This document shows positions 15,726 to 64,000 of a DNA stretch of 64,000 nt, piece after piece. A model generated the notes under the pieces. That model ran no database searches. It saw nothing but the letters and a program-made list of their open reading frames with translations, and was not told the origin of the DNA. The translations under genes were made by a program, and so were the position numbers. The stretch comes from Acidimicrobiia bacterium (lineage in GTDB: Bacteria; Actinomycetota; Acidimicrobiia; Spongiisociales; UBA5794). The DNA lies in contig JAUIIM010000001.1 in the NCBI GenBank assembly GCA_030431785.1, positions 3,323 through 67,322 of the forward strand. Reading direction: 5' to 3'. Numbering within the stretch: the first letter of the stretch is position 1; every line of letters starts with the position of its first letter.

Positions 15726-15757
15726 CGATTGTCGGATTGTCGGATTGTCGGATTGTC
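15726..15757. repeat. perfect tandem array 4 x GATTGTCG (TGTCGGAT family)
   Basis: gattgtcggattgtcggattgtcggattgtcg, between the gyrA stop and the DUF3566 start. Confidence 0.9.
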
Positions 15758-15781
15758 GGACCGAAGGGCCGGGCCGTCGGC

Positions 15782-22973: not shown

Positions 22974-24362
22974 TCATCTTGTCCTCAGCTGTTGGGTGAT
23001 CTCCGTGACCTGGTCATAGATGTCCTTGTCGGTCTGGAGGAGATTGGTGATCTTCTCGACGGCGTGCATCACCGTCGTGTGGTCCCGGCCGCCGAAAGCT
23101 GCACCGATACGTGGCAGAGAGAGACCCGTCTGCTCACGACAGATGTACATGGCGACCTGGCGATGCCGAGCGAGAGGCTGTCGACGTGAGGGCCCCAGAA
23201 GCTCGGAGCGTGGGACCTCGTAGTACTGGCTCACGGTCCCGATGATCGAGTCAGCGGTCAGCGGGGCTGCCTGCTGGAGCTGGACGACGTCACGGAGAAC
23301 GTTCGCCGCGAGGTCGACCGTGACGGGCTCGGACGTCAGCTTGGCGAACGCCGTCACTCGGGTGAGTGCTCCCTCGAGCTCTCGGACGTTCTCGGCGATG
23401 TTCTCGGCGATGAAACCCAGCACCTCCTCGGGGATGCGCTGGTCACCCATCGCAGCGTTCTTGCGGAGGATGGCAAGGCGTGTCTCTACGTCAGGTCGTT
23501 GGATGTCCGTCGTGAGACCCCACTCGAACCGGCTGCGGAGTCGATCCTCGATCGTACGCAACTCCTTTGGAGCGCGGTCGGACGAGATCACCAACTGATT
23601 GCCGGCCTCGTACAACGAATTGAACGTGTGGAAGAACTCCTCGAGCACCATCTCCTTGCCCTCGAAGAACTGGACGTCGTCGAGGAGCAGGATGTCGACC
23701 TTGCGGTAGCGCGCCTTGAAGTCGTCCATCTTCTTGCGACGGATCGAATTGATGAAGTCGTTGAAGAACGTTTCCGAGGTCACGTACTTGACGACGGCAC
23801 CGGGAGACAGTTCGAGGCGGTGTTGACCCACGGCGTGGAGTAGGTGGGTTTTGCCAAGCCCGGATCCTGCGTAGATGAACAGAGGGTTGTAGTGGCGACC
23901 GGGTTTCTCGGCGACGGCCTGGGCGGCTGCGTGGGCGAATCGATTCGACGATCCGACGACGAAGTTGTCGAACGAGTAGCGGGCGAGCAGGTTCGAGGTG
24001 TCAGAGGGGGACGGCGGTTCGTCGATCCGGGAACCGATGTGATCGTCGAGGGAGGGTTGATATGGGCCCTCATCCTCAAGGGCCTCGGTTGCTTTCTTCT
24101 CGTTGACCGAGATCGTGACCTCGAACTTTCCCGACCACACCGATGAGGCGATCTCCCCGATCTGGTGGGTGTAGTTGTCCCGAACCCACGAGGCGTTGAA
24201 GCGATTCGGGGCTTCGAGCCTCAGGACGTCGTCGTCCCGCTCGACATCGAGCGGTTTGATCCAGGTTTCCCACTTCGCAGCGCCGATCACGTCGCGCATT
24301 CTGCTGTGGAAAAGCTCGATCTTCGAGTCCACCGTCTCGGGACTCGCTTGTGTAGCAGCCAC
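22974..24362 (-). CDS. dnaA: chromosomal replication initiator DnaA
   Basis: AAA+ Walker [13 protein letters not shown]; C-terminal DNA-binding domain. Confidence 0.97.
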
Positions 24363-24404: not shown

Positions 24405-24690
24405 ATTCACCTGTCCACACACCTATCCACAGGATGTGGAGAAGATGCGCCCACGGGGCTCGTTCGGTCGAGCCCGTGAGCTCAGCTCCGTGGGAAGAGC
24501 GGGTGGCGAACCCGTCAAGAGCGACGGCGAGTGTATGCACCGTTTGCGGAGCACTTCAAGAGTGGCAAAACCGCCGCAAGACCGTCCTGTGGATAGCGAC
24601 CGAATCGGCGGAGAACCCTTACGCCCCTTGACTTGTACGCCGAGCGAGATACCCCTCGGGCGGCTGTTGTGCACAGCGATTTCCACAAAA
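24405..24690. promoter_or_regulatory. DnaA-box cluster upstream of dnaA / rpmH promoter region
   Basis: TGTCCACAC, CTATCCACA, TGTGGATAG and TTTCCACAA read directly. Confidence 0.6.
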
Positions 24691-27468: not shown

Positions 27469-27473
27469 CTGCT

Positions 27474-27489
27474 TGTTTCACGTGAAACA
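27474..27489. other. parS centromere-like site (TGTTTCACGTGAAACA, perfect consensus)
   Basis: Matches the ParB-binding palindrome read directly; upstream of rsmG-parA-parB. Confidence 0.85.
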
Positions 27490-27543: not shown

Positions 27544-27559
27544 TGTTTCACGTGAAACT
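27544..27559. other. parS site (TGTTTCACGTGAAACT, 15/16)
   Basis: Second copy about 70 bp from the first. Confidence 0.8.
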
Positions 27560-27567
27560 TCGTGGAG

Positions 27568-27603
27568 ACGAAGGGATGAAAGGACGAAGGGACGAAGGGA
27601 CGG
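27568..27603. repeat. octamer tandem array ACGAAGGG x4 (GAAGGGAC family)
   Basis: acgaagggatgaaaggacgaagggacgaagggacgg; reverse-complement family of the array at 48700. Confidence 0.85.
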
Positions 27604-27610
27604 CATGCTA

Positions 27611-27676
27611 GCCAGGAGCCAGGAGCCAGGAGCCAGGAGCCGGGAGCCGGGAGCCGGGAGCCAGCAGCCAGGAGCT
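27611..27676. repeat. heptamer tandem array GCCAGGA/GCCGGGA, about 9-10 copies
   Basis: gccaggagccaggagccaggagccaggagccgggagccgggagccgggagccagcagccagga. Confidence 0.9.
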
Positions 27677-27698
27677 CTGGCGGAGCTAGGATCGGGTT

Positions 27699-29986: not shown

Positions 29987-30008
29987 AACCCGATCGATGA
30001 TCCATGAT
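29987..30008. repeat. GATC-rich heptamer array ATGATCC x3
   Basis: cgatcgatgatccatgatccatgatcagg; shares 20 nt with 40658-40680. Confidence 0.8.
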
Positions 30009-30046
30009 CCATGATCAGGTGTCTGTAGGCGGTAAGCCGGTCGACC

Positions 30047-39137: not shown

Positions 39138-40549
39138 GCGGTATTCGCCTTGCCCGCATCGTCGACGACCGGGTCCGTGAACTCGCGGCAGCGTTTGCCG
39201 ACGAAGGGTTCTCGCTCTACCTCGTCGGCGGTTCGGTGCGCGATGCGCTGCTCGGACGTGCAGTGTCGGACCTCGACTTCACCACCGACGCCAGACCCGA
39301 CGAGATCGAACGAATCGGTTCGGAGTGGGCGTCGAGCATCTTCACCGCAGGCAAGGAGTTCGGGACGATCGGCCTCGTCCGCGATGGTCAGACGTACGAG
39401 GTCACAACATTCCGGTCGGAGATGTATCGGGACGATTCGCGCAATCCGGTTGTTTCGTTCAGCAACAGCCTCGAAGAGGACCTGAGCCGGCGGGACTTCA
39501 CGGTCAACGCCATGGCACTGCGGATTCCGCCCGACGACGCCGAGGACCCCGAGATGATCGATCCACACGGTGGGTTGACCGATCTCACCGGTCGTCTGCT
39601 ACGGACACCCCAGGACCCCGAGGTGTTGTTCTCCGACGATCCGCTGCGCATGCTTCGCCTGTTCCGGTTCATGTCGACGTTGGAGTTCGACCCCGACCCT
39701 GAAGCGCTGGCTGCGGTCCGAGCCATGTCACCTCGCCTGTCGATCATCTCCCGTGAACGGATCAGGACCGAACTCGACAAGCTCATCGTCGGTCCCGGTG
39801 TAGTCGCCGCCCTGACAGAGCTGGTCGTCTCCGGTCTTGCGGACGAGTTCATCCCGGAGGTGCCGGCGTTGGCTGTCGAGCAGGACCCGATACACCGACA
39901 CAAGGACGTCCTGGAGCACTCGATCATCGTGACTGCCCAGGCCGACGCACATCTCGACGAGCCCCGACTCGTCGTCCGGCTTGCTGCGCTGTTGCACGAC
40001 ATCGGAAAGCCCGCGACCCGCGAGTACGTCAAGGGCGGGGTCACGTTCCACCACCACGAGGTGGTGGGTGCCCGCATGGCCCGCAAACGGTTGAAGGAGC
40101 TGCGGTATCCGAAGGACATCGTCGAGGACGTCTCCAAGCTCGTGTTCCTCCACATGCGTCCGCACACGTTCAAGATGGGATGGTCCGACTCAGCGGTTCG
40201 TCGCTATGTCCGGGACGCGTCACCATTGGTCGACGAGCTGAACAGCTTGGTCCGGGCCGATGTCACGACCGGAAATGAACGCCGCGCACGACAGATCTCC
40301 CGGCGTATCGACGAGCTGGAGGAACGGATCGAGATCCTTCAGCAGCAAGAGGAGCTCGATGCGCTCCGTCCCCCGATCGATGGAAACCAGGTGATGGAGT
40401 ACCTCGGGATTCCGCCGTCTCGCACGGTCGGCGACATCATGGACATGCTCCTTGAGCGTCGTATCGAGGAAGGCCCCTATTCGGAGGAAGATGCCTTTGC
40501 GATGCTCGACGACTGGTCCGACCGCCAGGAGCGGTCAGACCAGTCGTAG
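39134..40549 (+). CDS. cca: CCA tRNA nucleotidyltransferase / poly(A) polymerase family (HD domain)
   Basis: LYLVGGSVRDALLG, then DLDFTT, and an HD domain; ATG 39134 overlaps the rnhA stop (ATGA). Confidence 0.85.
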   Translation: MSGIRLARIVDDRVRELAAAFADEGFSLYLVGGSVRDALLGRAVSDLDFTTDARPDEIERIGSEWASSIFTAGKEFGTIGLVRDGQTYEVTTFRSEMYRDDSRNPVVSFSNSLEEDLSRRDFTVNAMALRIPPDDAEDPEMIDPHGGLTDLTGRLLRTPQDPEVLFSDDPLRMLRLFRFMSTLEFDPDPEALAAVRAMSPRLSIISRERIRTELDKLIVGPGVVAALTELVVSGLADEFIPEVPALAVEQDPIHRHKDVLEHSIIVTAQADAHLDEPRLVVRLAALLHDIGKPATREYVKGGVTFHHHEVVGARMARKRLKELRYPKDIVEDVSKLVFLHMRPHTFKMGWSDSAVRRYVRDASPLVDELNSLVRADVTTGNERRARQISRRIDELEERIEILQQQEELDALRPPIDGNQVMEYLGIPPSRTVGDIMDMLLERRIEEGPYSEEDAFAMLDDWSDRQERSDQS

Positions 40550-40550
40550 C

Positions 40551-40590
40551 TGCTGGCTGCTGGCTGCTGGCTGCTGGCTGCTGGCTTCTC
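40551..40590. repeat. heptamer tandem array GCTGCTG x5
   Basis: gctgctggctgctggctgctggctgctggctgctg, immediately after the cca stop. Confidence 0.9.
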
Positions 40591-40660
40591 TCTTGCAATC
40601 GCCGTGCGAGATCGGACCACGGCGGGCGACCAGCGGCGCGCTCAGACACCGATCGATGAT

Positions 40661-40681
40661 CCATGATCGATGATCGAGAAC
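40661..40681. repeat. GATC-rich heptamer array ATGATCS x3
   Basis: atgatccatgatcgatgatcg. Confidence 0.8.
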
Positions 40682-40682
40682 G

Positions 40683-40722
40683 TCCGACAATCCGACAATC
40701 CGATAATCCGACGATCCGACGT
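40683..40722. repeat. octamer tandem array TCCGACAA x5 (reverse complement of the TTGTCGGA family)
   Basis: tccgacaatccgacaatccgataatccgacgatccgacgt. Confidence 0.9.
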
Positions 40723-40781
40723 ACCGGGGTGGGAGCAAGGAGCTAGGAGCGCTCCCTGGCCAAGGATCGGCCTCGCCCCCA

Positions 40782-46065: not shown

Positions 46066-46066
46066 A

Positions 46067-46134
46067 GACCGCTCGGCTGTTGCCTCGCTTCAAGATGCAA
46101 GACCGCTCGGCTGTTGCCTCGCTCAAAGATGAGA
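46067..46134. repeat. 34-nt tandem direct repeat x2 (GACCGCTCGGCTGTTGCCTCGCTTCAAGATGCAA)
   Basis: Two adjacent copies, about 90 percent identical. Confidence 0.85.
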
Positions 46135-46166
46135 GCGGTTGATCTGAGATCGAGGGCTATCCGACC

Positions 46167-46198
46167 ATCTGACAATCTGACAATCTGACCGTCTGGCC
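46167..46198. repeat. octamer tandem array ATCTGACA x3-4 (reverse complement TGTCAGAT; variant of the TGTCGGAT family)
   Basis: atctgacaatctgacaatctgaccgtctggcc. Confidence 0.8.
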
Positions 46199-46217
46199 GT
46201 CCGTTACTCTCGGGTGC

Positions 46218-47840: not shown

Positions 47841-48623
47841 ATGTCGATGAAAGACGCTGCGCTCGGTCCGATCTATCGCGTATACACCGACCGCCTGCTG
47901 CGCGACCTCGATCGCAAGGCGTTGCCCCGCCACATCGGAGTCATTCACGACGGGCACCGTCGCTACGCCCGCGCCGAGGGTCTTCCCGACTACGCAGCGT
48001 CCTACCGGGTCGGAATGGCGAAGTTCGTCGAATTCCTCGGATGGACCGCAGATCTAGAGATCGAGGCAGTGACCTGTTGGCTGCTGTCCACGGAGAACCT
48101 GAGTCGTCCCGAGGCAGAGCTGGTTCCGTACTACGACGTCCTCAAAGAGATGTTTCGTCAGATCCCGGACTCGCCTGCCGGACAGGACGTGCGGGTCCGC
48201 TTCATCGGCAGTCTCGACCTGCTCCCGCCCGACCTCGTGGAGGCTGCGAAAGAACTCGAGGAAGCGTGTGCCGAGGGATCCAGGAAGGTCACGATCGCAC
48301 TCGCATACGGGGGCCGGCAGGAGATCGTCGATGCGGTGCGCGATCTCGTTGACGACCTGACGAGCCAAGGGGTCGCGTCGTCCGACCTTGCGAGCCACAT
48401 CGATCCCGAGGCGCTGTCGTCACGGATGTATGCGTCCGACCTTCCGGATCCGGATCTCGTGCTGCGCACCTCGGGAGAGGCACGGCTCAGTGGCTTCATG
48501 CTCTGGCAGGCCGCCTACGCCGAGTACTCCTTCGTCGACGTGTACTGGCCGGCCTTCCGATACATCGACTTCCTTCGTGCCCTGCGCGACTACACGAGAA
48601 GAGAACGTCGATACGGGAAATGA
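47841..48623 (+). CDS. uppS: isoprenyl transferase (cis-prenyltransferase, UppS family)
   Basis: HIGVIHDGHRRYA and RTSGEARLSGFMLWQAAYAE motifs. Confidence 0.85.
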   Translation: MSMKDAALGPIYRVYTDRLLRDLDRKALPRHIGVIHDGHRRYARAEGLPDYAASYRVGMAKFVEFLGWTADLEIEAVTCWLLSTENLSRPEAELVPYYDVLKEMFRQIPDSPAGQDVRVRFIGSLDLLPPDLVEAAKELEEACAEGSRKVTIALAYGGRQEIVDAVRDLVDDLTSQGVASSDLASHIDPEALSSRMYASDLPDPDLVLRTSGEARLSGFMLWQAAYAEYSFVDVYWPAFRYIDFLRALRDYTRRERRYGK

Positions 48624-48699
48624 ACCGACCTGGTGGTCGGTTCATTTGACTCGCTCGGCATAGCCTCGCTTCCGATCTCCGAGCTCTGAGCGCCCGCTT

Positions 48700-48838
48700 T
48701 GTCCTCTCGTCCGATGTCCCTCCTTCCCTTTGTCCCTTCTTCCCTTGATCCCTTCGTCTCTTCGTCCCTTTGTCCCTTCTTCCCTTGATCCCTTTGTCCC
48801 TTTGTCCCTTCTTCCCTTCCTCCCTTCCTCCCCTCGTC
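48700..48838. repeat. octamer tandem array TCCCTTNN, about 17-18 copies (reverse complement GAAGGGA family)
   Basis: tcccttctTCCCTTgatcccttcgtctcttcgtccctttgtcccttct... read directly; ends about 65 bp before the ppc start. Confidence 0.9.
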
Positions 48839-48904
48839 CTCAGTACTGCACGTGTCGCGTACCGAACTACCGTGGTTCGCATGGATGGTGTGGGTACCAG
48901 AGAG

Positions 48905-51595
48905 ATGGATGTGCGCGATCAGGCGTTGCGCGGAGACATCCGGCGTCTGGGGAATCAACTCGGTGATGCACTCGTGCGTCAGGAAGGGCGCGATCTCCTG
49001 GACCTGGTCGAGCAGGTCAGATCCGAGACACGCAAAGCGCGTAGGGGACGTACGACCGATGTCGATCCACTGGGTGAGGTTCTCGAAGGCCTCGACCTCT
49101 CGACACTTGAGCGACTGGTGCGGGCGTTCACGACGTACTTCTACCTCGCCAACGTTGCCGAGCAGATGCACCGTCTCGACGAACTCTCGGCGCGCATGCC
49201 GCGCAACCAGGGCTGGCTGGAGCGGTCGATCGACCGGATCGATGCTGCTGGCATTCCGATGGATGACGTTGCGGCGATGGCCGAACGCCTCGATGTGCGG
49301 CCGGTCTTCACCGCCCACCCGACCGAGGCGTCACGCCGCTCGATCCTGACGAAGTTGAACTCGATTGCCGACCATCTCCAGCAGCGTCTCGATCCGCGGA
49401 CGTCTGCCTCCCAACGCCGCACGATCGACCGACGCATCGCCGAGCTGATCGACCTCATCTGGCAGACGGATGAACTGCGGCGTGGACGTCCCGATCCGAC
49501 CGATGAAGCGACCTCGGTCATGTACTACTTCGACGAGTTGTTCCTGAGCGCGGTGCCGGATGTCCTCGACACGTATGCGTTCGAGATGAGCCGGATCGGC
49601 ATCGACATCCCACCGGATTCGAGTCCGCTGACGTTCGGCACGTGGGTGGGTGGCGACAGGGACGGGAACCCGTTCGTGACCGCCGATGTCACCCGTTCGA
49701 TCGTTGCGATCCAGTTCGACCATGCCCTGCGCAACTGCATCGAGAGCGTGCAACGCCTTGCGCGCGATCTGTCGACTTCTTCGCGGATCCGCGGAACGAG
49801 TGAGGAGCTCCGTACGAGTCTCGAGTTCGATCGGAGTGTGCTTCCCGACGTGTGGGACCGATACGGCGAACTCGATGCCGAGGAGCCGTATCGACTCAAG
49901 CTCGCGTACGTCCACCAGCGACTGGTGAACACCCGCAGGCGTCTGGCCGATGACGCGGAGCATGTGCCCGGCGTCGGCTACGCGTCCACGGCCGAGCTCA
50001 TGGAAGACCTCCTCGTGATCCATCGGTCTCTGGATGCACACGATGGCCACCTCGTTGCCACGGGGATGGTCGCCAGGCTCTGCCGAACCCTTGCTGCGTT
50101 CGGATTGCATCTTGCGACGATGGACATCCGTCAGCACGCGCTGAAGCATCGCGACGCCATCGTCGATCTCATGGGGTCGTTCGACCGAGACGAGCTGCTT
50201 GCGTCGCTGCGTGACGGGCTGGCGACACAAAGTCAAGACGTCGACGGCAGCACCTCCGAGGTTCTCCACGTGTTCGACGTGATCGCCGAGATGAAGGACA
50301 GCTACGGCGAGGACCTCGTGGAGAGCTTCATCATCTCCATGACGCGGGATGCCGACGACGTTCTGGCTACTGCCGTGTTGGCGACGCCTTCCGGGTTGAT
50401 CGATATCGGGAACGATGTGGCCCGGATCGGTTTCGTCCCGCTTCTCGAGACGATCGATGAGCTCCGCGCAGCCGGTGACATTCTCGAAGACCTGCTGTCC
50501 CAGGAGCCCTACCGCAAGATCGTCTCGCTTCGTGGTGACGTCCAAGAAGTCATGCTCGGCTACTCCGACTCGAACAAGCATGGTGGGATCACCACCTCGC
50601 AGTGGGAGATCTACAAGGCGCAGAGCCGACTTCGCGACGTCGCTGCCGATCACGGTGTGACACTGCGACTCTTCCACGGCAGGGGAGGAACCATCGGACG
50701 TGGTGGCGGCCCCACGTACGACTCGATTCTCGCGCAGCCGTGGGGCACGGTCGACGGTGCGATCAAGGTGACAGAGCAAGGTGAGGTCATCTCAGACAAG
50801 TACGCGATGCCCGAGCTGGCGAAGTCGACGCTTGAACTCACGTTGTCGGCCGCGCTCGATGCGTCACTGCTCCATACAACGCCTCGCCGATCGGATGACG
50901 ACCTGAAGCGTTGGTTCGATTCGATGGATGCCATCTCGAATGCAGCGTTTGGCAGCTACCGAGGTCTTGTCGAGACGGACGGCTTCTTCGAGTATTTCCT
51001 GCTGTCGACGCCTGTCGAAGAGCTTGGGTCCCTTCACCTCGGGTCCCGCCCGTCACGGCGGCCCGGAGGCACAGGATCGCTCGACGACTTCCGCGCGATC
51101 CCATGGGTGTTCGGCTGGACCCAGAGTCGGCAGATCATCCCCGGCTGGTTTGGCGTCGGTTCCGGCCTCGTCGCAGCGCGTGAGGCCGGGCACGGTCCCG
51201 TGATCGCGGACATGTTCAACCGTTGGCCGTTCTTCCGGACCTTCGTGTCGAACGTCGAGATGACCCTCTCGAAGACGGATCTGTCGATCGCCGAACGCTA
51301 TGTGCGTGATCTCGCCGGTGAAGAGCACCTCCCGGTATTCCACCGGATCCGCGACGAGTACGAGCGTACGGTCGAGGAGATCCTCGCCATCACTGGTGGC
51401 ACGGCCCTCCTCGAGTCCAACCCGGTGCTACAGAGGACTCTCCGAGTTCGTGATGCGTACCTTCATCCGTTGCACCGGTTGCAGGTGACCTTGCTCGGGG
51501 TCCATCGCGATGACTCGCCGGACGACGAGGAGCTACGACGAGCCCTGCTGCTCACCGTCAACGGCATCGCCGCCGGACTGCGGAACACCGGTTAG
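48905..51595 (+). CDS. ppc: phosphoenolpyruvate carboxylase
   Basis: Start MDVRDQALRGDIRRLG (alternative ATG at 48881; the track start 48770 reads through the repeat array). PEPC motifs VFTAHPTE and FHGRGGTIGRGGGP. Confidence 0.9.
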   Translation: MDVRDQALRGDIRRLGNQLGDALVRQEGRDLLDLVEQVRSETRKARRGRTTDVDPLGEVLEGLDLSTLERLVRAFTTYFYLANVAEQMHRLDELSARMPRNQGWLERSIDRIDAAGIPMDDVAAMAERLDVRPVFTAHPTEASRRSILTKLNSIADHLQQRLDPRTSASQRRTIDRRIAELIDLIWQTDELRRGRPDPTDEATSVMYYFDELFLSAVPDVLDTYAFEMSRIGIDIPPDSSPLTFGTWVGGDRDGNPFVTADVTRSIVAIQFDHALRNCIESVQRLARDLSTSSRIRGTSEELRTSLEFDRSVLPDVWDRYGELDAEEPYRLKLAYVHQRLVNTRRRLADDAEHVPGVGYASTAELMEDLLVIHRSLDAHDGHLVATGMVARLCRTLAAFGLHLATMDIRQHALKHRDAIVDLMGSFDRDELLASLRDGLATQSQDVDGSTSEVLHVFDVIAEMKDSYGEDLVESFIISMTRDADDVLATAVLATPSGLIDIGNDVARIGFVPLLETIDELRAAGDILEDLLSQEPYRKIVSLRGDVQEVMLGYSDSNKHGGITTSQWEIYKAQSRLRDVAADHGVTLRLFHGRGGTIGRGGGPTYDSILAQPWGTVDGAIKVTEQGEVISDKYAMPELAKSTLELTLSAALDASLLHTTPRRSDDDLKRWFDSMDAISNAAFGSYRGLVETDGFFEYFLLSTPVEELGSLHLGSRPSRRPGGTGSLDDFRAIPWVFGWTQSRQIIPGWFGVGSGLVAAREAGHGPVIADMFNRWPFFRTFVSNVEMTLSKTDLSIAERYVRDLAGEEHLPVFHRIRDEYERTVEEILAITGGTALLESNPVLQRTLRVRDAYLHPLHRLQVTLLGVHRDDSPDDEELRRALLLTVNGIAAGLRNTG

Positions 51596-51613: not shown

Positions 51614-53356
51614 TCACGAGCAACCGTCGTTCCAGTCCGAATCGAACGAATCGAGCCATGCCGCCGTCGGTGCGCTCGCCGTCAAGCAGCCACTCTGGCC
51701 GTTGAGGGTCAGGATCGTGACGTTCGTCAGGGTTGCGAGTCCGTCGGGCACTGCACCTGTCAGGTCGTTGTCGTGGAACATGAACTGGTTGAGGTCGGTG
51801 AGATTTGCAACGGATGCGGGGATCGATCCGGAAAAGTCGTTGCCGAATCCGATGAGGTAGGCCATTTTGTGACCAGCGGGCCACTCGGGGATCGAACCAT
51901 CGAGTTGGTTGTTGGCGACGTTGAGAACTCGCATCTGGGTATTCGTCACGAAGCTCGCGGGGATCGATCCGGTGAGTTGATTCGAGTTCAGGTACACGTT
52001 GCGAAGCGTTGCGATGTCCCCGAGGTCTGAGGGAATGGTTCCGGTGAGCTGGTTGTCGCTGAGGGTCAGGCTGACGAGCATGGGGATGTCCGCCAGCTCC
52101 GTAGGGATCGTCCCCTCGAGCTGGTTCGAGTGGAGCTGTAGGAACTGGACCTGCGGGAGTTCCCCCAATTCCGTCGGGATCGTGCCGGTCAGCTGGTTGT
52201 TGCTGAGGTTCAGATAGATCACCTGATCCAAGTCCCTGAGTTCAGGAGGGATAGGACCAGAAAGGTCGTTGCTGTTCAGATACAGCCACCCGACGTTGGT
52301 CAGGTTCCCCAGCTCTGCAGGAATCGAACCGACGAGCTCGTTGTAGTCGAGCCAGAGGCGCTGGAGTCCCGTCAGGGTTGCGACATCGCCAGGAATCTGG
52401 CCCGCAATCTCGTTTTCGCTGAGGTCGAGCGTTCGCAACCCGATGCCGAGATCTCCGATGTCCGTGGGGAGTGTTCCGGTCAGGTTGTTGTCCATCAACT
52501 CAACCTCGTCGAGATGCTCAAAGTTGCAGGTGATACCGAACCAGGTGCATGGATCCGTCGTGGCGATCCAACCTGTGGAGTCGATCCATTCGGTCCCGTT
52601 CGTGGCATGGAACAGGTTCACCAGAGCGGCGCACTCCGTCTTGTCGAGGGTGGTCTGATGTCCGCACGCGTATGAGAGCGGTTGGCGATTCGAACCCGCC
52701 TCACCGACCGCCGGTTCACCGGCGAACCGCCACAAGAAGGTGGCGAACTGTGCCCTGGTCACGACATCATCCGGTGAAAAAGTCGACGGCGACGTCCCCT
52801 GGGTGATGCCTTCGTCGACCATCCAGGTGATCGGATCCGAGAACCACTGTCCATCCGGGACGTCGGAGAATCCCGATGATCCGGTCACTTCGGGTTCGCC
52901 GGCATAGCGATAGAAGAAGGTGGCGGCCTGTGCGCGGGTGAGATCTTGATCAGGCCCGTAGAGGTCTTCCGAAACACCGGCGGTGATTGCATGCAGGAGG
53001 AGCCATCCCACTGCATCGGAGAAGTAGTCCGCTTCCTCGACATCGTCGAACGATTGGTCGGCGCCGGGCAGTTCACCGCCGAAACGATGCAGGAAGGCGG
53101 CGAGATGGGCACGGGTGACCGGGTCGTGGGGTGAGAACGTCGTAGCCGACGTCCCTGACGTGATGCCCTGGTCGACCATCCAGTCCACCGGCGTCTCGTA
53201 GTACGAGCCGGGTTCCACGTCGTCGAACGCGAAGGCGACCGTTGCAGCGGCCAAGACACAGCCAAGCACCACTGCTATCACGATTCCCGACCTCTTGTTC
53301 CCAACCGTCTGCCGCACTTCCAATCCTTTCCATGGCTCAGGAGCACTATAGGACAT
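51614..53356 (-). CDS. cell-surface protein: signal anchor + three SLH domains + plant-type leucine-rich repeats
   Basis: Three repeats of FxDV..YY...VxWMVDxGITxGxS.xTFSP...VTRAQ.A.FLxRFAG (SLH), then about 12 LRRs of type LxxLxLxxNxLTGxIPxxLGxL, ending in a Cys-containing C-terminus. Confidence 0.8.
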   Translation of the reverse strand: MSYSAPEPWKGLEVRQTVGNKRSGIVIAVVLGCVLAAATVAFAFDDVEPGSYYETPVDWMVDQGITSGTSATTFSPHDPVTRAHLAAFLHRFGGELPGADQSFDDVEEADYFSDAVGWLLLHAITAGVSEDLYGPDQDLTRAQAATFFYRYAGEPEVTGSSGFSDVPDGQWFSDPITWMVDEGITQGTSPSTFSPDDVVTRAQFATFLWRFAGEPAVGEAGSNRQPLSYACGHQTTLDKTECAALVNLFHATNGTEWIDSTGWIATTDPCTWFGITCNFEHLDEVELMDNNLTGTLPTDIGDLGIGLRTLDLSENEIAGQIPGDVATLTGLQRLWLDYNELVGSIPAELGNLTNVGWLYLNSNDLSGPIPPELRDLDQVIYLNLSNNQLTGTIPTELGELPQVQFLQLHSNQLEGTIPTELADIPMLVSLTLSDNQLTGTIPSDLGDIATLRNVYLNSNQLTGSIPASFVTNTQMRVLNVANNQLDGSIPEWPAGHKMAYLIGFGNDFSGSIPASVANLTDLNQFMFHDNDLTGAVPDGLATLTNVTILTLNGQSGCLTASAPTAAWLDSFDSDWNDGCS

Positions 53357-54067: not shown

Positions 54068-54076
54068 CGGAGAAGA

Positions 54077-54094
54077 GTACTCAGTACTGAGTAC
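54077..54094. promoter_or_regulatory. 18-bp perfect palindrome GTACTCAGTACTGAGTAC (AGTAC-motif family) in a divergent promoter region
   Basis: Flanked by further GAGTAC/AGTACACAG copies (54070-54150). The same motif family occurs at 27407-27520. Confidence 0.5.
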
Positions 54095-54267
54095 TCAGTA
54101 CACAGTTGGGTGACGGACCCGATCGCAGCGTCTGTGTACTTTGTACTCGGCCCGAAGGGCCGGAAAATGAACTCGGGGCCGCCTTGCGGCGGCCCCGGTT
54201 CGGGCTTAGACGGGAGGTTAGGAAGGCATCCTGTCTGGCTACTGTATCGACCGGAACGAGAACGGAC

Positions 54268-57768: not shown

Positions 57769-58031
57769 GAAGTGTGGATACGCCCTGATCGGCGCAGAGA
57801 AAGCGGGTTCTCAGTTGTTGTCTGTCATCCGTCCCTTTGGTCGACGTCCGCGATCCTACCGCTTGCCGGGGCATGCCGCGCCCCACCCGCGCTCATCGAC
57901 AGGTCGAAACAGGTCAAACAACCTACGAGATACGCCGATACGGGGGTGGGGTATTCCTAGAATCCGGCCAGCGCACGTCGGCAGAGCCCGCATCGACGTG
58001 CCATCGATTGGCACTCTTTGAGGTGGAGAAC

Positions 58032-61000
58032 GTGACATTCCGAGGCAGAGGACGGACCGCACTGCTCGTGGTGGCGCTGGTCGCCTCGCTGATCCCCTTC
58101 GCACCGGTGTTCGACGGTGCGGCAACAGCTGATGGGTCGCCCGACATCGGCGTCTCGGTCGCGGCGGACGCCGAAGTGCTCCACGGGTTGACCTCCAGTG
58201 TTGAGATCACAGCATCGAACAACAGCGGGACCGACGGGTACAACCTCTCGTACCGGGTCGTGCTGCCGGTCGGTGTCTCGTACTCGTCCGGACCCATTCC
58301 ACCGACGGTACTCAACGATGTCCCGACACTCGGTGAGACGACGCTGTTCTTCTCGAACTACTCGGACTTGCCTGACGGTGGCAACCAGCCCATCACGATC
58401 GTGGTCGCCCACGACCCCGCCGTGTACACACCGGGCGACACCTTCACCGTGTCCGCCGATGCCTACGTCAATGACGACGAACGCATCGTGCCGAAGATCG
58501 ACAACAGTGGTGTCGTGACCGATGGTCCCGGATTCGCATCCGGATCAGACAGCACCGAGGTCATCCCGTTCCAGGTCACGAAGACGGAACCGAGTCCTGA
58601 GAACGAGCTGCTGCGCGGGCTCCACGATCAGCAGACGGTGTATTCGATCACGATCACCACAGCACCGGAAGGTGGGTCATCGGACTTTGCTGTCGAGGAC
58701 TGGATTCCTGCTGGGATCGAGTTCCTCGGATGCGGCGGTGTCGACAACTCGACGGTCGGTGAGGAGTACCCGGGTTCGGGACCGATCGGTGGTGCTGCGG
58801 TCCCCGATTGTCCCGCCCCCACGCTCGTCGAGACGATCAGCACGGGACTCCCGCCAGGGCTCCCGGCCGGGACCTACACCCACGTCGTGTGGGACAACGC
58901 CGCGCTGGCGTCTGTGGGAGCTGACTCGATCGGTGCGAACTCGTCCGTCACATTCAACTACGCGGCTGCCATCCCCATGTTCGAGAACACGACCACCTGG
59001 GCGGGTTCGGAGCCGGATCCGACGAGCGGGCTCCAGGCCTCCAACATCGACAACAACAACGGTCCCTCGACCGCTGAAGGGGCCGGGGAGATCGGCTACA
59101 CCAACTACGTCGACGTGTCGGGCACCTACTCCGTCGATGCACAGGGCTACAGCGACGATGCGAACCACACGGTCACCGCCGAGGATCTCGCCATCGTCAA
59201 GACGGTGAACCCGACGCTTTCAGTCATCGGGACCGTCAGCACATGGACGCTCACAGTCCGAACATCGGAGTACGCCGCAGGATTGACCGGGGTAGCGGTG
59301 GAAGACACGGTGCCCAACGAGTTGTGTGCGGGTGCCACCCCGTGTGCTTCATCAGCAGGAGCCGCGACCCCGCCGTACACATCCTTCACGGAGAACGGCG
59401 ATGGGACCACGACGCTGCAATGGACGCTCGGTGATCTCGGAGACAACGCAACATCCACGATCACCTACTACACCGAGCAGCGAACGTTCGGTGGCGGGTC
59501 CGCAGTGTCTGCTGGTGACGGCTGGACGAACGACGTCACGGTCACGGGCACGAACGATGGGGTCGCTGTGGCGGACGATTCGAGCGCTTCGCAGCGCACG
59601 GTGCTTCCCGAGATGACGAAGGAGATCGCCGTCCCAGGCGCGATTCCGATGGTGTGCGGCGACGGGAGCGCTCTCTCGTGGGAGGACGGCTCGTCGGGTC
59701 TCTACCAGCCGGGCGACCGTGTCTGTTTCCGTCTCGCCATCGACATCCCCCAGATCACCGCCCGCGGGCAGCGACTCGTCGACTTCCTCCCTCCGGGATT
59801 CACCTATGAGTCCTGGGCTTTCGGTCAGAACAACACGGTGACCGAGGCGAACGTCGGATTCGACGGGTCCGGCGCAGGCGATGGAGTGCTGATCTGGTTC
59901 TCGACCCTCCCGGACTCTGACTTCCCGCCCGGGGACCACCTGGAGATCGTCGTTTCGACGTTCGCTGGTCCTCCTGCGGTAGGGGAACCAGGAGACCTGT
60001 TGGAGAACCTGGCGAAGTACCAGGGTGTGAGCACGGATGGTGAGGTCTACTTCAGCCGTGACGATGCAGATGTCGAGTGGGGCGAGCCAAGTATTGAGAC
60101 GGTGGACAAGTCGGCGTCGGCGACAACCGTCGTCTCGGGCGATGTGGTCGACTTCCAGATCGACGTCACGAACGACGGCAACGCTGAGGCACTGAACTCG
60201 GTTATCTGGGATGTACTGCCGGTCGGTCTCGAGTGCGGCACGGTGTCGAGCATCTCTGATTCGGGTGTCTGCCAGACCGGCCCGACACCGGATCGGATCG
60301 AATGGACGATCCCGTCGATCGGACCGGGCGCGACTGAGACGCTGACGTATCAGGTCACGATCCCATTGGGGGTCACCGCGGGTGAGTCGTGGACCAACGA
60401 AGTCGGTGTCCGCTCGTATCAGGGGCAGATCAACACCGGAATCACCGATTTCACGGACTACTTCCCCGCGAACAACATTGACGACGGCATCGATCCGGCC
60501 GACGAGAATGCCCCTGAGGCCCTGGACGACTGGACCTTGGTAACCCCGGATGTGGTCATCGACAAGTCGGGGACGACCTCACTTGTGGACCCCGGCAACA
60601 ACTTGAACGGTCAGGCGACCATCGGAGAGCAAGTCTTCTTCGAGGTCGAGGTCGACTTCCCCGGCGATGTCACGCTGTACAACCCATCCTTGACCGATGT
60701 GATCGAACCCGGGTACGTGTACCAAGGCGATGCGCTGTTCTGCGTCGGACCTTCGGGTCTACCCGACTGTACGCCAGCGCTACCGGTCTCGTGGGATGGG
60801 ACGCAACTCGAGGCCATCGGCCCAGCAGTCTTCCCTGTCCCGACAGGTGGTGAAACGCTCCGGATGACGTTCTCGGTGATCGTCGATGATGTGCCGGGGA
60901 ACACGCGTGGTACAAGGATCGACAACGATGCGACGGTGACCTGGGAGGACGTGTCCGGGAGTGAGTCGAGCTTGACGTCGAGTCACAACATCCGCGTCAC

Positions 61001-64000
61001 CGAGCCCAACCTGGTCGTCGACAAGACCAGCGATGACGCCGACGGGATAGTCGATGCCGGACAGACCGTCACCTGGACCATCGATGTCCTCAACGACGGA
61101 ACACCTACTTTCGTGTCGAGCGCCTACGACCTCGAGATCTGGGATCGGCTTCCCGCCAATCTCGCATGTGGGGATGTTTCGAACATCTCTGACGGCGGCC
61201 AATGCCAGACCGTCGACGGTGAGGACTACGTCATCTGGACTCCGTCCGAGTTCGCAGCTCTGGGTGAGGTGACGCGGAACAACTCAGTATCGGTGTCGTT
61301 CGACGTCACGATCCCCAGTCCGGTCGTCGCCGGAACTCCGTTCACGAACACCGTAAATGCGTACACGAGCAGCCTCGGTGGTACGGACCCCAACGAGCGG
61401 AGCGCCCCTTCGACTACGGCTGGCGAGGTCAACGACTCCGGCCCGGTTGGCTACTTCGCAACGGATGACGACACCCTCATCTCACCCGGTATCGACATCG
61501 CAAAGACCGTCACCCCCACCGACCAGACGGTCGGCGAGGGCGTCGAGTACACGCTTGAAGTGACGATTCCGGCCGGAGTCGTGGGATACGACCTCACGGT
61601 GATCGACGCCGTCCCGGCCGGTGTTGTCGTCACCTCTCCCGGGTACACCACGAGCAGCTCCTGTGACATGGGTGGCGCCTGTGTACCGTCGGTCGTCGTC
61701 ACCGAACTCCTCCCGAACGGATCGGACATCGGGTGGTTCCTCGGTGATCAGCCGCTTCCGGCTGTCGCCGATCGAGTCATCACCATCGTCTATGAAGCTT
61801 CAATCGATGATGTCGCAGGGAACACCGACGGGACCACCCTCACGAACACGGCGACGATCTACACGAATCAGTCCGACCAGATGGTCTCGCCACCTGGGAA
61901 TCAGGTGCCGGACGCACCGAACTACGACCTGTCGGGACCCAGCGACGACGCCACGGTGACCGTCTTGGAGCCAGACGTGTCGATCGTCAAGGAAGTATGG
62001 AACGGGTCTACCTGGGTCGATGCACGCCGTGCCGTCCCGAACGAGAGCCTGGACTACCGCCTCGTCCTCACGAATGATGGGACCTGGCCAGCCTATGGCC
62101 TCGTCGTGACCGACACGATCTCCGTCTTCTCCGGCGATGCAATGGTGCTCGGCACCGTGGCTGACGGCGCCGGCTACACCGTCTCGGACGACGATCCGAG
62201 TGACGGATCTCTGGCTTGGCTTGTCGACGGCCCGCTGGCCGGGGCAGGCGCCTCGCTCACGATCACCTACACCCTCGATGTGTGGGACGCCGATTCGGGG
62301 GATGAGGATCCAACAGGACCTGAGATCACGAACACTGCAGCCTTGACGGAGTATTGGGCGGTACCGACACCCGACCCGACGATCCACCGTGAGTACTCGG
62401 ACGGATCCGATTCAGTGGACATCGAGCTCGATCTCGCCTCGCTCGGGGACTACGTGTGGTTCGACGTGGACAACGACGGAGTGCAGGACGCAGGCGAGCC
62501 ACCGCTGGAGAACGTGGAGATCACCGTCACCTACCTCGGTGCCGATGGAGTCGCGGGCGGAGGAGACGACGAGGTCACCGTCGTGACCACTGACGTCGAC
62601 GGTCTGTACCTTGTCGAAGACCTTCCGGGAGGCAACTACACCGTGGCGGTGACCGACGGTGTCCCCTCCGGCATGGCTCCGTCGTTCGACTGGGATGACG
62701 GGACCACGAGCCCGGACGGCATATGGGTCGGTGCACTCGGTGAGGCAGAGGACACGCGAGACATCGACTTCGGCTACACGGGGACGGGCTCGGTCGGCGA
62801 CCACATCTGGTTCAACCGCAACGGCGATGGTGTCGTCGATGTCGACGAGCCGGGAATCCCGAACATCACCGGAACCGTCACCTGGCTCGGGTTCGAGAAC
62901 TCGGTCGGCGGTGGTGACGACATTGTGTATCCGTTCACGACTGATGCGAATGGCGACTACCTCGTCGACCTGCTCCCCGGAGGCGAATACGTCGTGACGG
63001 TCACGGGCGGGATTCCGGCGGGAATGGCGAACAACTTCGATGCCGACGGCGGCGACGACGACACATCCTCGCTCACGCTCGGTGCCGGCGAGGACAACCT
63101 CGATCAGGACTTCGGCTACGCAGGGGACTCGTCGATCGGTGATCTCGTATGGCACGATGACAACCGGAATGGCGTCCTGGACGGCGCAGAGGTCGGACTC
63201 GCAAACGTCGAGGTCGACCTTCTGTGGCCGGGATTCGACGGCATCTTGGGCACTCCGGACGACGACACCTTCACGGTGACCACCGACGGGAACGGGGCCT
63301 ACCTGTTCGAGGGCCTGAACCCCGGCGACTACACGGTGACCGTGAACGTCGGAACGGTGCCTGCCGGTTTTGTGAACACCTTCGACGAGGATGGGAACCT
63401 CGATGACACCGTGGATGTCACCCTTCCTGCCGCCACCGATCACCTGACCGCAGACTTCGGATATGACGGCGACGGCTCGATCGGTGACACGGTCTACTGG
63501 GACCTCAATGGTGACGGGACCCAGCAACCCGGCGAGCCCGGGATCCCGGGTGTCAACGTGTTCGTCCGCTACGCAGGCTCGGACGGGATCCTGAACACCA
63601 CCGATGACGTCGTCTACGTCCATATCACCGATGGCGATGGGGAATATCTTGCGCTTGACCTCGCTCCCGGCCTGTACTCGGTGATGGTCAGCGGGCCGGT
63701 CACGTCCTCGGGCATCAACACTGGCGATCCTGACGGGGGTGGTGACAGCATGTCGACGCTCACCCTTGCACCATCGACTTCCGATCTCGACCAGGACTTC
63801 GGCTACAGCGGCGATGCCACGATCGGTGACTTCGTCTGGTACGACATCAACGGTGACGGTGTACAAGACGCTGGGGAGCCGGGCCTGGATGGCGTCGATG
63901 TCGAACTCACATACTTCGGGCCGGACGGTCGAGAGGGCACGGCTGACGACCTTGTGTTCACCACCACGACGGCAGGTGGTGGTCTGTACGAATTCGACAT
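58032..64000 (+). CDS. giant secreted surface/adhesin-like protein, 3'-truncated by the window end: signal peptide, DUF11-type conserved repeat domains, then at least six SdrD-B/Cna-B-like repeats
   Basis: Continuous frame without stop from GTG 58032 (GGTGGAG RBS) to the window end, about 1990 codons. Signal peptide RGRGRTALLVVALVASLIPFAPVF. Repeats of GDxVWxDxNGDGxQDxGEPG...TTDxxGxYxFxxLxPGxYTVxV...DFGY. The ORF track omits it because it has no stop; the antisense ORF 62412..63866 is rejected. Confidence 0.8.
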   Translation, partial: MTFRGRGRTALLVVALVASLIPFAPVFDGAATADGSPDIGVSVAADAEVLHGLTSSVEITASNNSGTDGYNLSYRVVLPVGVSYSSGPIPPTVLNDVPTLGETTLFFSNYSDLPDGGNQPITIVVAHDPAVYTPGDTFTVSADAYVNDDERIVPKIDNSGVVTDGPGFASGSDSTEVIPFQVTKTEPSPENELLRGLHDQQTVYSITITTAPEGGSSDFAVEDWIPAGIEFLGCGGVDNSTVGEEYPGSGPIGGAAVPDCPAPTLVETISTGLPPGLPAGTYTHVVWDNAALASVGADSIGANSSVTFNYAAAIPMFENTTTWAGSEPDPTSGLQASNIDNNNGPSTAEGAGEIGYTNYVDVSGTYSVDAQGYSDDANHTVTAEDLAIVKTVNPTLSVIGTVSTWTLTVRTSEYAAGLTGVAVEDTVPNELCAGATPCASSAGAATPPYTSFTENGDGTTTLQWTLGDLGDNATSTITYYTEQRTFGGGSAVSAGDGWTNDVTVTGTNDGVAVADDSSASQRTVLPEMTKEIAVPGAIPMVCGDGSALSWEDGSSGLYQPGDRVCFRLAIDIPQITARGQRLVDFLPPGFTYESWAFGQNNTVTEANVGFDGSGAGDGVLIWFSTLPDSDFPPGDHLEIVVSTFAGPPAVGEPGDLLENLAKYQGVSTDGEVYFSRDDADVEWGEPSIETVDKSASATTVVSGDVVDFQIDVTNDGNAEALNSVIWDVLPVGLECGTVSSISDSGVCQTGPTPDRIEWTIPSIGPGATETLTYQVTIPLGVTAGESWTNEVGVRSYQGQINTGITDFTDYFPANNIDDGIDPADENAPEALDDWTLVTPDVVIDKSGTTSLVDPGNNLNGQATIGEQVFFEVEVDFPGDVTLYNPSLTDVIEPGYVYQGDALFCVGPSGLPDCTPALPVSWDGTQLEAIGPAVFPVPTGGETLRMTFSVIVDDVPGNTRGTRIDNDATVTWEDVSGSESSLTSSHNIRVTEPNLVVDKTSDDADGIVDAGQTVTWTIDVLNDGTPTFVSSAYDLEIWDRLPANLACGDVSNISDGGQCQTVDGEDYVIWTPSEFAALGEVTRNNSVSVSFDVTIPSPVVAGTPFTNTVNAYTSSLGGTDPNERSAPSTTAGEVNDSGPVGYFATDDDTLISPGIDIAKTVTPTDQTVGEGVEYTLEVTIPAGVVGYDLTVIDAVPAGVVVTSPGYTTSSSCDMGGACVPSVVVTELLPNGSDIGWFLGDQPLPAVADRVITIVYEASIDDVAGNTDGTTLTNTATIYTNQSDQMVSPPGNQVPDAPNYDLSGPSDDATVTVLEPDVSIVKEVWNGSTWVDARRAVPNESLDYRLVLTNDGTWPAYGLVVTDTISVFSGDAMVLGTVADGAGYTVSDDDPSDGSLAWLVDGPLAGAGASLTITYTLDVWDADSGDEDPTGPEITNTAALTEYWAVPTPDPTIHREYSDGSDSVDIELDLASLGDYVWFDVDNDGVQDAGEPPLENVEITVTYLGADGVAGGGDDEVTVVTTDVDGLYLVEDLPGGNYTVAVTDGVPSGMAPSFDWDDGTTSPDGIWVGALGEAEDTRDIDFGYTGTGSVGDHIWFNRNGDGVVDVDEPGIPNITGTVTWLGFENSVGGGDDIVYPFTTDANGDYLVDLLPGGEYVVTVTGGIPAGMANNFDADGGDDDTSSLTLGAGEDNLDQDFGYAGDSSIGDLVWHDDNRNGVLDGAEVGLANVEVDLLWPGFDGILGTPDDDTFTVTTDGNGAYLFEGLNPGDYTVTVNVGTVPAGFVNTFDEDGNLDDTVDVTLPAATDHLTADFGYDGDGSIGDTVYWDLNGDGTQQPGEPGIPGVNVFVRYAGSDGILNTTDDVVYVHITDGDGEYLALDLAPGLYSVMVSGPVTSSGINTGDPDGGGDSMSTLTLAPSTSDLDQDFGYSGDATIGDFVWYDINGDGVQDAGEPGLDGVDVELTYFGPDGREGTADDLVFTTTTAGGGLYEFD

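Follow-up and report, generated by a model that had tools for sequence, protein, structure and literature searches.

Between uppS and ppc of an Acidimicrobiia bacterium, we found a tandem array of an 8-bp unit that takes up ~130-140 bp (positions 48700-48843, plus strand) of the 64,000-nt stretch analyzed here (contig JAUIIM010000001.1; hereafter, the window). The gene downstream, ppc, encodes phosphoenolpyruvate (PEP) carboxylase. On the evidence below, the tract is probably a slippage-generated, non-coding octanucleotide microsatellite, that is, a variable-number tandem repeat (VNTR) or long simple sequence repeat (SSR), ordinary for its lineage and in need of no sequence-specific function. 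It is an octameric Acidimicrobiia example of long intergenic SSRs, a kind that includes arrays with tracts of three guanines (G3).

The octamer array in the uppS-ppc spacer

The 8-bp register is kept over 48716-48843 through 16 units with the consensus NTCCCTTN, and on its 5′ side this block is flanked by two decayed units at 48700-48715, TGTCCTCT and CGTCCGAT. An earlier sequence-only reading of this DNA had reported an array of about 18 octamers at this place, and the 16 regular plus two decayed units bear it out. About 12 distinct unit variants are present, GTCCCTTC being the commonest, followed by GTCCCTTT and TTCCCTTG/C; the 3′-most unit decays into GTCCTCAG. Tandem Repeats Finder (TRF) delimits the array at 48717-48832 with period 8, 14.5 copies, 80% matches, and a score of 106, and offers as an alternative a period of 40 (five units) with a score of 171. 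This higher order of five units is weakly visible unit by unit, with an identity of 6.70/8 at lag 5 vs. ~6.1-6.4/8 at other lags, and a 30-bp exact stretch is repeated 40 bp apart within the array. Allowing at most one mismatch, the two-unit pattern TCCCTTNNTCCCTT matches 17 times in the window where 0.09 matches are expected, a count reached by none of 100 shuffles; the only matches outside the ppc tract lie at 27571-27600 on the minus strand. The array is thus an SSR, with a short unit set head to tail far above chance.

The array is non-coding. Three open reading frames (ORFs) cross it [48730-48966 (+), 48496-48882 (-), and 48590-49318 (-)], and none matches a Pfam family, in keeping with the earlier view that such ORFs are spurious on both strands and that no translated frame would be conserved. 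Rfam gave no match in the whole window at gathering thresholds, nor in 48400-49000 at E ≤ 1, and the 257-bp uppS-ppc spacer as a whole folds no better than shuffled sequence (z = 0.68). Neither a conserved peptide nor a structured RNA was therefore found in the array.

The public gene call for an identical ppc protein is 904 aa long, and the starts of the three closest orthologues, from sister genomes, align at ATG 48881; we therefore place the ppc start there rather than at ATG 48905. In the 904-aa protein, the match to the PEPcase profile starts at residue 16. With this start, the array ends 38-42 bp upstream of the start codon, and the distance of ~65 bp given earlier fits the internal ATG 48905 instead. 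A consensus scan of 48400-49100 returned no sigma-70-like promoter and no U-tract terminator, so it is by a TANNNT -10-like hexamer, TACCGT, alone that a ppc promoter can be placed. No Shine-Dalgarno-like sequence is evident by eye before the ppc ATG. Leaderless genes of actinobacteria typically show TANNNT at this spacing and lack a Shine-Dalgarno sequence, and TACCGT is thus a possible leaderless-type promoter of ppc.

Lineage-specific gain within a class of variable arrays

We compared the locus with seven sister contigs (L001-L003 and L211-L214); the next-best ppc relatives are 70% identical. All seven keep the gene order HlyIII-uppS-ppc-His_Phos_1, and in all seven the uppS-ppc spacer measures 51-65 bp and contains neither the array nor the hairpin that overlaps the uppS stop codon in the window (48618-48647). 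Because the sisters keep uppS and ppc without it, the array is a lineage-specific gain and dispensable for ppc. The role of spacer that had been suggested for it holds as a description, a spacer of ~55 bp having been lengthened to 257 bp. The sister contigs bear other heptamer arrays at other spacers (e.g., in L211, GCGTTGA ×9.9 immediately 3′ of the ppc stop codon, and in L212, several), which points to turnover of arrays.

In the window, TRF found 11 arrays with a period of 7 (six) or 8 (five), and none of either period in any of 30 first-order Markov randomized windows. These arrays occupy intergenic spacers or their margins, with housekeeping genes as neighbors (gyrA/DUF3566, jag/rsmG, parB, CCA-adding enzyme/argC, argH/cupin, uppS/ppc, and His_Phos_1), and four of them are crowded into a 250-bp spacer 5′ of argC. 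Among relatives, 80 ppc loci from Acidimicrobiia (895 kb in total) contain ~70 arrays with at least three copies, of which 34 have the dominant period 7 and one has period 8; octamers therefore look peculiar to this genome. Units are diverse across the window and the relatives (GATTGTCG, TCCGACAA, AGCCAGG, GCTGCTG, CGTCTTC, AGACGCC, and others), and few of the units listed contain a G3 tract. Arrays are found in spacers of every gene arrangement (co-directional, divergent, and convergent), and in 51 of them the C/G skew had no consistent relation to transcription. Acidimicrobiia hold a dense, rapidly turning-over stock of 7-8 bp intergenic arrays; a full-text literature search found no description of tandem repeats in this class.

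One other array of the window shares its unit with the ppc tract. It lies between jag and rsmG at 27567-27602 and consists of GAAGGGAT, GAAAGGAC, and two copies of GAAGGGAC, all of which also occur in the ppc array. Since the units are identical, the two arrays belong to the same family, as had been proposed from the sequence alone and as the TCCCTTNNTCCCTT matches at both loci confirm. The heptamer array reported beside it is real as well (AGCCAGG ×9.4), and Pfam upheld the identities of rsmG, parA, and parB. Two near-perfect palindromes, TGTTTCACGTGAAACA (27473-27489) and TGTTTCACGTGAAACT (27544-27559), lie between jag and rsmG-parA-parB, directly upstream of the GACGAAGG and AGCCAGG arrays; they are parS-like, the parS consensus being TGTTNCACGTGAAACA.

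Arrays of comparable kind vary in length. An orthologous CGYCTTC array has 8.7 copies in one related locus (L053) and 5.3 in another (L056), with largely conserved aligned flanks. A metagenome scan retrieved at least 120 contigs with four TCCCTTNN units, of mixed G+C content and some of them eukaryote-like. Among the matches listed is L145, a Terracidiphilus-like member of the Acidobacteria whose LeuC is 88-89% identical to that of Terracidiphilus metagenome-assembled genomes. In contigs with identical LeuC, the TCCCTTGY array has three units (four contigs), ~14 (L206), or ~16 (L207), and its flanks otherwise match. With 3, ~14, and ~16 units in one population, TCCCTT-core octamer arrays are genuine VNTRs in nature. 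In contig L201, a scaffold N-run starts inside the TCCCTTGY array (~1800-1900, reverse-complement view), so such arrays can break short-read assemblies. Of the three options that the sequence-only reading had left for the ppc tract (a spacer or UP-like element, a protein-binding array, or a hypermutable tract), the last fares best, given the gain relative to seven sisters and the variation of comparable arrays, evidence that applies at the level of the class.

These observations suggest the following course. The tract would have arisen recently in this lineage within the former ~55-bp uppS-ppc spacer and grown, most likely, by slipped-strand mispairing during replication, unit by unit and perhaps also by blocks of five units (40 bp); such growth in place is consistent with the decay of units at either edge. 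Throughout the lineage, arrays of arbitrary 7-8 bp sequence would arise and decay fast wherever a spacer is tolerant. Loops of 7-8 nt exceed the range of MutS-type mismatch repair, which may be part of why units of this size expand. Heptameric SSRs are reported to be over-represented in many bacterial genomes, for which polymerase slippage has been proposed (PMC4692102), and work cited there ascribes the preference for heptamers to the footprint of the replicative polymerase. Passively, the tract would set the uppS hairpin ~200 bp apart from ppc and, if ppc is leaderless from TACCGT, would span about -38 to -180 from the ppc start. Being asymmetric, it could take G-quadruplex (G4), i-motif, or triplex forms, and gain or loss of units may have a modest tuning effect on ppc expression in the manner of the clbR octamer VNTR discussed below.

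Function weighed against slippage

Several observations weigh against slippage without function. The species is represented by one genome, and length variation is known from comparable arrays, hence at class level. One orthologous pair of arrays (L058/L066) retains 4+4 units without change and shows higher conservation than the remainder of its spacer. Within the window, two of the 11 arrays share one 8-mer unit, a coincidence estimated at roughly 1% under independent random origin (55 pairs × 16 rotations and strands/65,536), which hints at unit-specific bias or selection. Octamer arrays with a TCCCTT/AAGGGA core recur in many metagenome contigs across phyla. Their orientation was counted on contigs with G+C ≥ 0.56 among the matches listed, ascertained on the TCCCTT core and with crude gene calls: arrays with G3/C3 tracts lying ≤120 bp after a stop codon have the G-rich strand as the coding strand in 36 cases and the C-rich strand in 16 (z ~2.8), a bias that pure neutrality does not predict. 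Finally, four of the six array-adjacent genes in the window carry a leaderless-type -10 signature, and the arrays could be tied to promoters.

This last association was followed further. The starts of rsmG (27699), the cupin gene (46218), and the His_Phos_1 gene (54067) each lie 9-24 bp downstream of an array, and in the window array and leaderless-type start coincide in 4-5 of ~9 candidates. A rough hypergeometric test gave P ~6e-4 when set against all ~45 genes and ~0.04 when set against the ~20 genes with an upstream spacer of their own. As a general mark of leaderless promoters, arrays were rejected: in 81 sequences (the window and the 80 related loci), an array lay ≤80 bp upstream of 5 of 182 leaderless-type starts vs. 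11 of 872 Shine-Dalgarno-type starts. The association is suggestive within the window, and we regard it as no more than a lead.

Taken together, the unit shared by two of 11 arrays, the cross-phylum core with its orientation bias, and the occurrence of octamers here against the relatives' heptamers leave a small probability that arrays with an AAGGGAC/GTCCCTT core, octameric or heptameric, are a functional intergenic element found across phyla, placed strand-specifically and setting ppc output by copy number. Such elements may present the G-rich strand as coding after stops and the C-rich strand before starts, often as inverted pairs; they may act as tunable insulators or rheostats through G4/R-loop formation, Rho loading, or hairpins; and in this genome they may lie directly upstream of leaderless promoters. 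Before starts (≤120 bp), the matches listed show the C-rich strand as coding in 22 cases and the G-rich strand in 17. Many spacers of the metagenome contigs (L103, L133, L145, L153, L108, L200, and L185) contain inverted pairs, the stop of one gene being followed by a G-rich array and the start of the next preceded by a C-rich one. The ppc array has the placement of the half that lies before a start, and no inverted partner was found within 400 bp of it. In L108, inverted GGGACGAA and TTCGTCCC octamer arrays with the unit of the window lie at 5509-5713 within a single ORF; they are in frame in an 872-aa HtrA-like product, between its Trypsin_2 and PDZ domains, and arrays can therefore sit within, or insert into, coding sequence.

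Several functional readings are weakened because the two members of the family are opposed in orientation, most arrays lack G3 tracts, and the sisters lack the tract; none of the G4, i-motif, triplex, Rho-loading, UP-element, protein-binding, and antisense sponge RNA roles has direct support. The first of these is the physical structure of the tract. Up to three G4s in tandem could form on the antisense (template) strand, and an i-motif or H-DNA on the C-rich sense strand under negative supercoiling, which would modulate opening of the ppc promoter or passage of RNA polymerase. Where G4-forming repeats call for at least four G3 tracts on one strand with loops ≤7 nt, the minus strand has 14 G3 tracts at 8-nt spacing and three non-overlapping canonical G4 motifs, out of seven in 64 kb. 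The predicted folding energy of the antisense strand falls from -6.0 to -24.5 kcal/mol once G4s are allowed, and the sense strand contains a 31-nt pyrimidine run. The known GGGAATC and GGGGAYT repeats form G4s and i-motifs in vitro, and their preference for a G-rich non-coding strand upstream of ORFs is matched here (PMC4692102); the 36:16 bias of the G3 arrays listed points the same way. Against this, the prediction is computational only, and the unit is an octamer (GGGACGAA/GAAGGGAC) and not the heptamer GGGAATC or GGGGA(C/T)T. Most 7-8 bp arrays of the window and its relatives have no G3 tract, so the class would go unexplained; the 27567 array is oriented oppositely with respect to its own downstream gene; and the authors who described the heptamers found no regulatory role for them (PMC4692102). 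We consider a structural role of this kind improbable.

Rho loading is less likely still. If transcription from uppS, or from a promoter 5′ of the array, extended through the tract, the ~140 nt of C-rich RNA would act as a Rho utilization (rut)-like site, insulating ppc from uppS read-through or attenuating a long ppc leader. The composition suits such a site: the 144 bases of the sense strand comprise C 66 (46%), T 60, G 14, and A 4; the RNA has next to no structure (minimum free energy, -0.3 kcal/mol); and it exceeds the ~70-80 nt that Rho loading calls for. The tract also follows directly 3′ of a hairpin without a U-tract, and the ~55-bp spacer of the sisters, which have neither array nor hairpin, is compatible with cotranscription. 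However, sense-strand C does not generally exceed G in arrays that follow genes (orientations were mixed among the 51 arrays of the window and relatives), the 27567 array is G-rich on its sense strand, and the array would lie outside the ppc mRNA if ppc is leaderless.

That the array binds a protein at the ppc promoter, be it a transcription factor, a nucleoid protein, or the alpha subunit of RNA polymerase at a UP-like element, is very unlikely. The array ends near the -35 region of the putative leaderless promoter, its unit recurs at a second promoter-proximal site, and sets of four heptamers or octamers were proposed as sites of global regulators by the annotators of Geobacter (PMC2700814). 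The composition is nevertheless unlike a UP element, which is A/T-rich: C makes up 46% of the tract, four of its 144 bases are A, and the consensus scan found no promoter, so that this part of the earlier suggestion is not supported. Nor is the idea of a protein-binding array. With a period of 8 bp, neighboring sites are out of helical phase and face different sides of the DNA, the other array of the family runs in the opposite direction, no candidate binding protein was identified, and the sisters keep ppc without the array, which ppc accordingly does not need. Iterons, with a period in helical phase (~10-11 or 21-22 bp) and a cognate protein, are likewise not matched by a period of 8.

It is most improbable that the minus strand encodes a small, G-rich RNA, (GAAGGGAN)16, with the 48618-48647 hairpin at its end, which would serve as a sponge for a CsrA-like GGA-binding protein or, through Shine-Dalgarno-like AAGGGA/GGAGG, for ribosomes. 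There are ~16 GGA/GGG motifs on that strand followed by the palindromic hairpin, which is present on both strands. But the consensus scan of 48400-49100 found no promoter-like site, Rfam had no match in 48400-49000 at E ≤ 1, the predicted minus-strand fold does not display the GGA motifs in hairpin loops as CsrB/RsmZ do, and, to our knowledge, CsrA is generally absent from Actinobacteria.

An array inflated or created by assembly, or one that encodes a repetitive N-terminal extension of PEP carboxylase from TTG 48770, is scarcely credible: although the N-gap of L201 shows that such arrays break assemblies, the 30-bp stretch repeated 40 bp apart could make copy number mis-estimated, and the frame from TTG 48770 is open into ppc, the units come in ~12 variants, the flanks are unique, and the genes on both sides are intact; a single short read or a read pair should be able to span ~140 bp; the PEPcase match starts at residue 16, with orthologues starting at the position of 48881; and an 8-bp period cannot hold a reading frame unit by unit. 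A mobile element of the type of miniature inverted-repeat transposable elements or repetitive extragenic palindromes was rejected, as BLAST of the flanks of both arrays against all fetched sequences returned self-matches only. The motif CAGTACT beside the array (six occurrences vs. 1.65 expected; two of 100 shuffles reach six) was too weak to pursue.

Known systems, consequences, and neighboring features

Cyanobacterial heptanucleotide repeats are named STRR. Of the systems compared, the GGGAATC (Xanthomonas) and GGGGA(C/T)T (Nostoc) repeats of Rehm et al. 2015 (PMC4692102) resemble the ppc array in being arrays of a short unit with one G3 tract per unit, strongly intergenic, present in many copies per genome, variable among close relatives, and of unknown function, with the G-rich strand preferentially the non-coding one upstream of ORFs, as it is at ppc. 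They differ in the length of the unit (7 nt rather than the 8 nt of GGGACGAA) and in preferring ~4 units where the ppc array has 16-18; the host here is an Acidimicrobiia actinobacterium, and most arrays of its genome are not G-rich, the G3 type being a minority. The long SSRs with 5-11 bp units of Mrazek et al. 2007, as far as they are cited in PMC4692102, are likewise non-coding, concentrated in certain lineages, diverse in unit, ascribed to slippage, and without established function. As cited there, that work, including the cyanobacterial heptanucleotides, stresses period 7, whereas this genome mixes 7 and 8.

The best experimental precedent for tract size tuning expression is, by analogy, the clbR VNTR of the Escherichia coli pks island, (ACAGATAC)2-20, also an octanucleotide array directly 5′ of a gene; it has 2-20 copies depending on the strain, and 20 vs. 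5 copies change expression ~2-fold (PMC7364221). The clbR tract lies in the 5′ untranslated region (UTR) and varies among isolates (PMC7364221), whereas the ppc array is known from one genome sequence; the unit sequences are unrelated, and clbR is a single locus where the arrays here are a genome-wide habit. Geobacter metallireducens has scattered families of tandem heptamers and octamers, with four copies of GGGACCG at 49 sites, whose GGGAC core the ppc unit shares, and four copies of the octamer GTTGCTYN in inverted pairs that resemble those on the metagenome contigs (PMC2700814). In Geobacter, the number of units is fixed at four, and the elements are annotated as putatively regulatory and also occur inside genes (PMC2700814); the ppc array is long, single, and without inverted partner. 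The TAACTGA heptamers of Beggiatoaceae, Cyanobacteria, and Bacteroidetes are intergenic tandem repeats across phyla that, like the ppc array, often end a few to tens of nucleotides before start codons, and for this one dominant heptamer a site for a post-transcriptional regulator has been proposed (PMC4679880). Here, by contrast with TAACTGA, units are diverse, and the ppc array may lie outside the ppc transcript. Contingency-locus SSRs bring about on/off phase variation of surface or virulence genes in host-adapted pathogens. Those in promoters or 5′ UTRs, such as an SSR of Haemophilus influenzae (PMC12721329), are slippage-prone, and their copy number alters expression of the neighboring gene. 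Unlike them, ppc belongs to the central metabolism of an uncultured environmental bacterium, and the arrays here lie beside housekeeping genes generally (rsmG, argC, and gyrA-DUF3566).

For annotation, the ORFs through the tract should be treated as spurious, the ppc start set at 48881, and the copy number in the assembly taken as not reliable to the unit. In metagenomes, 7-8 bp arrays could be used as VNTR markers to tell strains apart; in short-read assemblies, they are a likely cause of breaks. Should strand bias and promoter proximity hold genome-wide, the question of why some bacteria accumulate heptamer and octamer repeats, a long-standing one, would become testable in lineages where it has not been posed before. 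Features of the window are collected in Table 1.

Table 1. Genes, arrays, and sequence signals of the window (positions count from its first nucleotide)
Feature	Position	Strand	Remarks
uppS (undecaprenyl diphosphate synthase)	47841-48623	+	PF01255, E 3e-63; upstream neighbor of the array
Perfect inverted repeat	48618-48647		13-bp arms, 4-nt loop; overlaps uppS stop codon; terminator-like hairpin without U-tract
Octanucleotide array (NTCCCTTN)n	48700-48843	+	16 in-register and 2 decayed units; C/T-rich in the sense direction of ppc; antisense (GAAGGGAC)n
Uninterrupted pyrimidine run, 31 nt	48805-48835	+	3′ end of array; could form triplex or i-motif; complement holds one of the three canonical G4 motifs
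TACCGT (TANNNT, -10-like)	48868-48873	+	-13 to -8 from ppc ATG
ppc (phosphoenolpyruvate carboxylase), 904 aa	48881-51595	+	PF00311, E 7e-298; start ATG 48881
(GACGAAGG)×4.5, the GAAGGGAC array	27567-27602	+	G-rich on +; orientation opposite to ppc array; between jag and rsmG
Heptamer array (AGCCAGG)×9.4	27610-27675	+	TRF; ends 24 bp 5′ of rsmG ATG 27699
CTCCGTT array	4196-4223		period 7-8; unit unrelated to ppc array
GATTGTCG array	15727-15760		period 7-8; unit unrelated to ppc array
GATCCAT array	29992-30016		period 7-8; unit unrelated to ppc array
GCTGCTG array	40549-40586		period 7-8; unit unrelated to ppc array
GATCGAT array	40651-40677		period 7-8; unit unrelated to ppc array
TCCGACAA array	40683-40720		period 7-8; unit unrelated to ppc array
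GGAGCAA array	40732-40750		period 7-8; unit unrelated to ppc array
ATCTGACA array	46159-46201		period 7-8; unit unrelated to ppc array
AGTACTC array	54076-54106		period 7-8; unit unrelated to ppc array
TANNNT hexamers	27687-27692, 46205-46210, 48868-48873, 54074-54079		-13/-12 from ATG of rsmG, cupin gene, ppc, and His_Phos_1, respectively

Some further observations concern the surroundings of these arrays. In two related loci, a ~140-bp composite repeat lies 5′ of ppc (L031, 5100-6000; L032, 5300-5930). It consists of a ~100-bp conserved module with GGGGGTCTGGGGGTCGCC and a heptamer mini-array whose unit differs between the two (AGTCTCC vs. GCGTCTT); this repeat is absent from the window. Between ppc and His_Phos_1, the window has a gene for a protein with SLH and leucine-rich repeats (51614-53356, minus strand), which is an insertion in this lineage, since ppc and His_Phos_1 adjoin in L211-L214. 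The argH-cupin spacer holds, beside the ATCTGACA array, a 34-bp direct repeat of 1.9 copies (46066-46131; 93% matches, TRF score 118). Just 5′ of dnaA (22974-24362, minus strand) lies a tandem of two CACCTATCCACA units (24408-24431) with a DnaA-box-like TATCCACA, and the cumulative GC skew has its minimum at ~20-24 kb; the replication origin is therefore probably near dnaA. A very long ORF of high coding score (57837-64000, >2,050 codons) runs off the end of the window.

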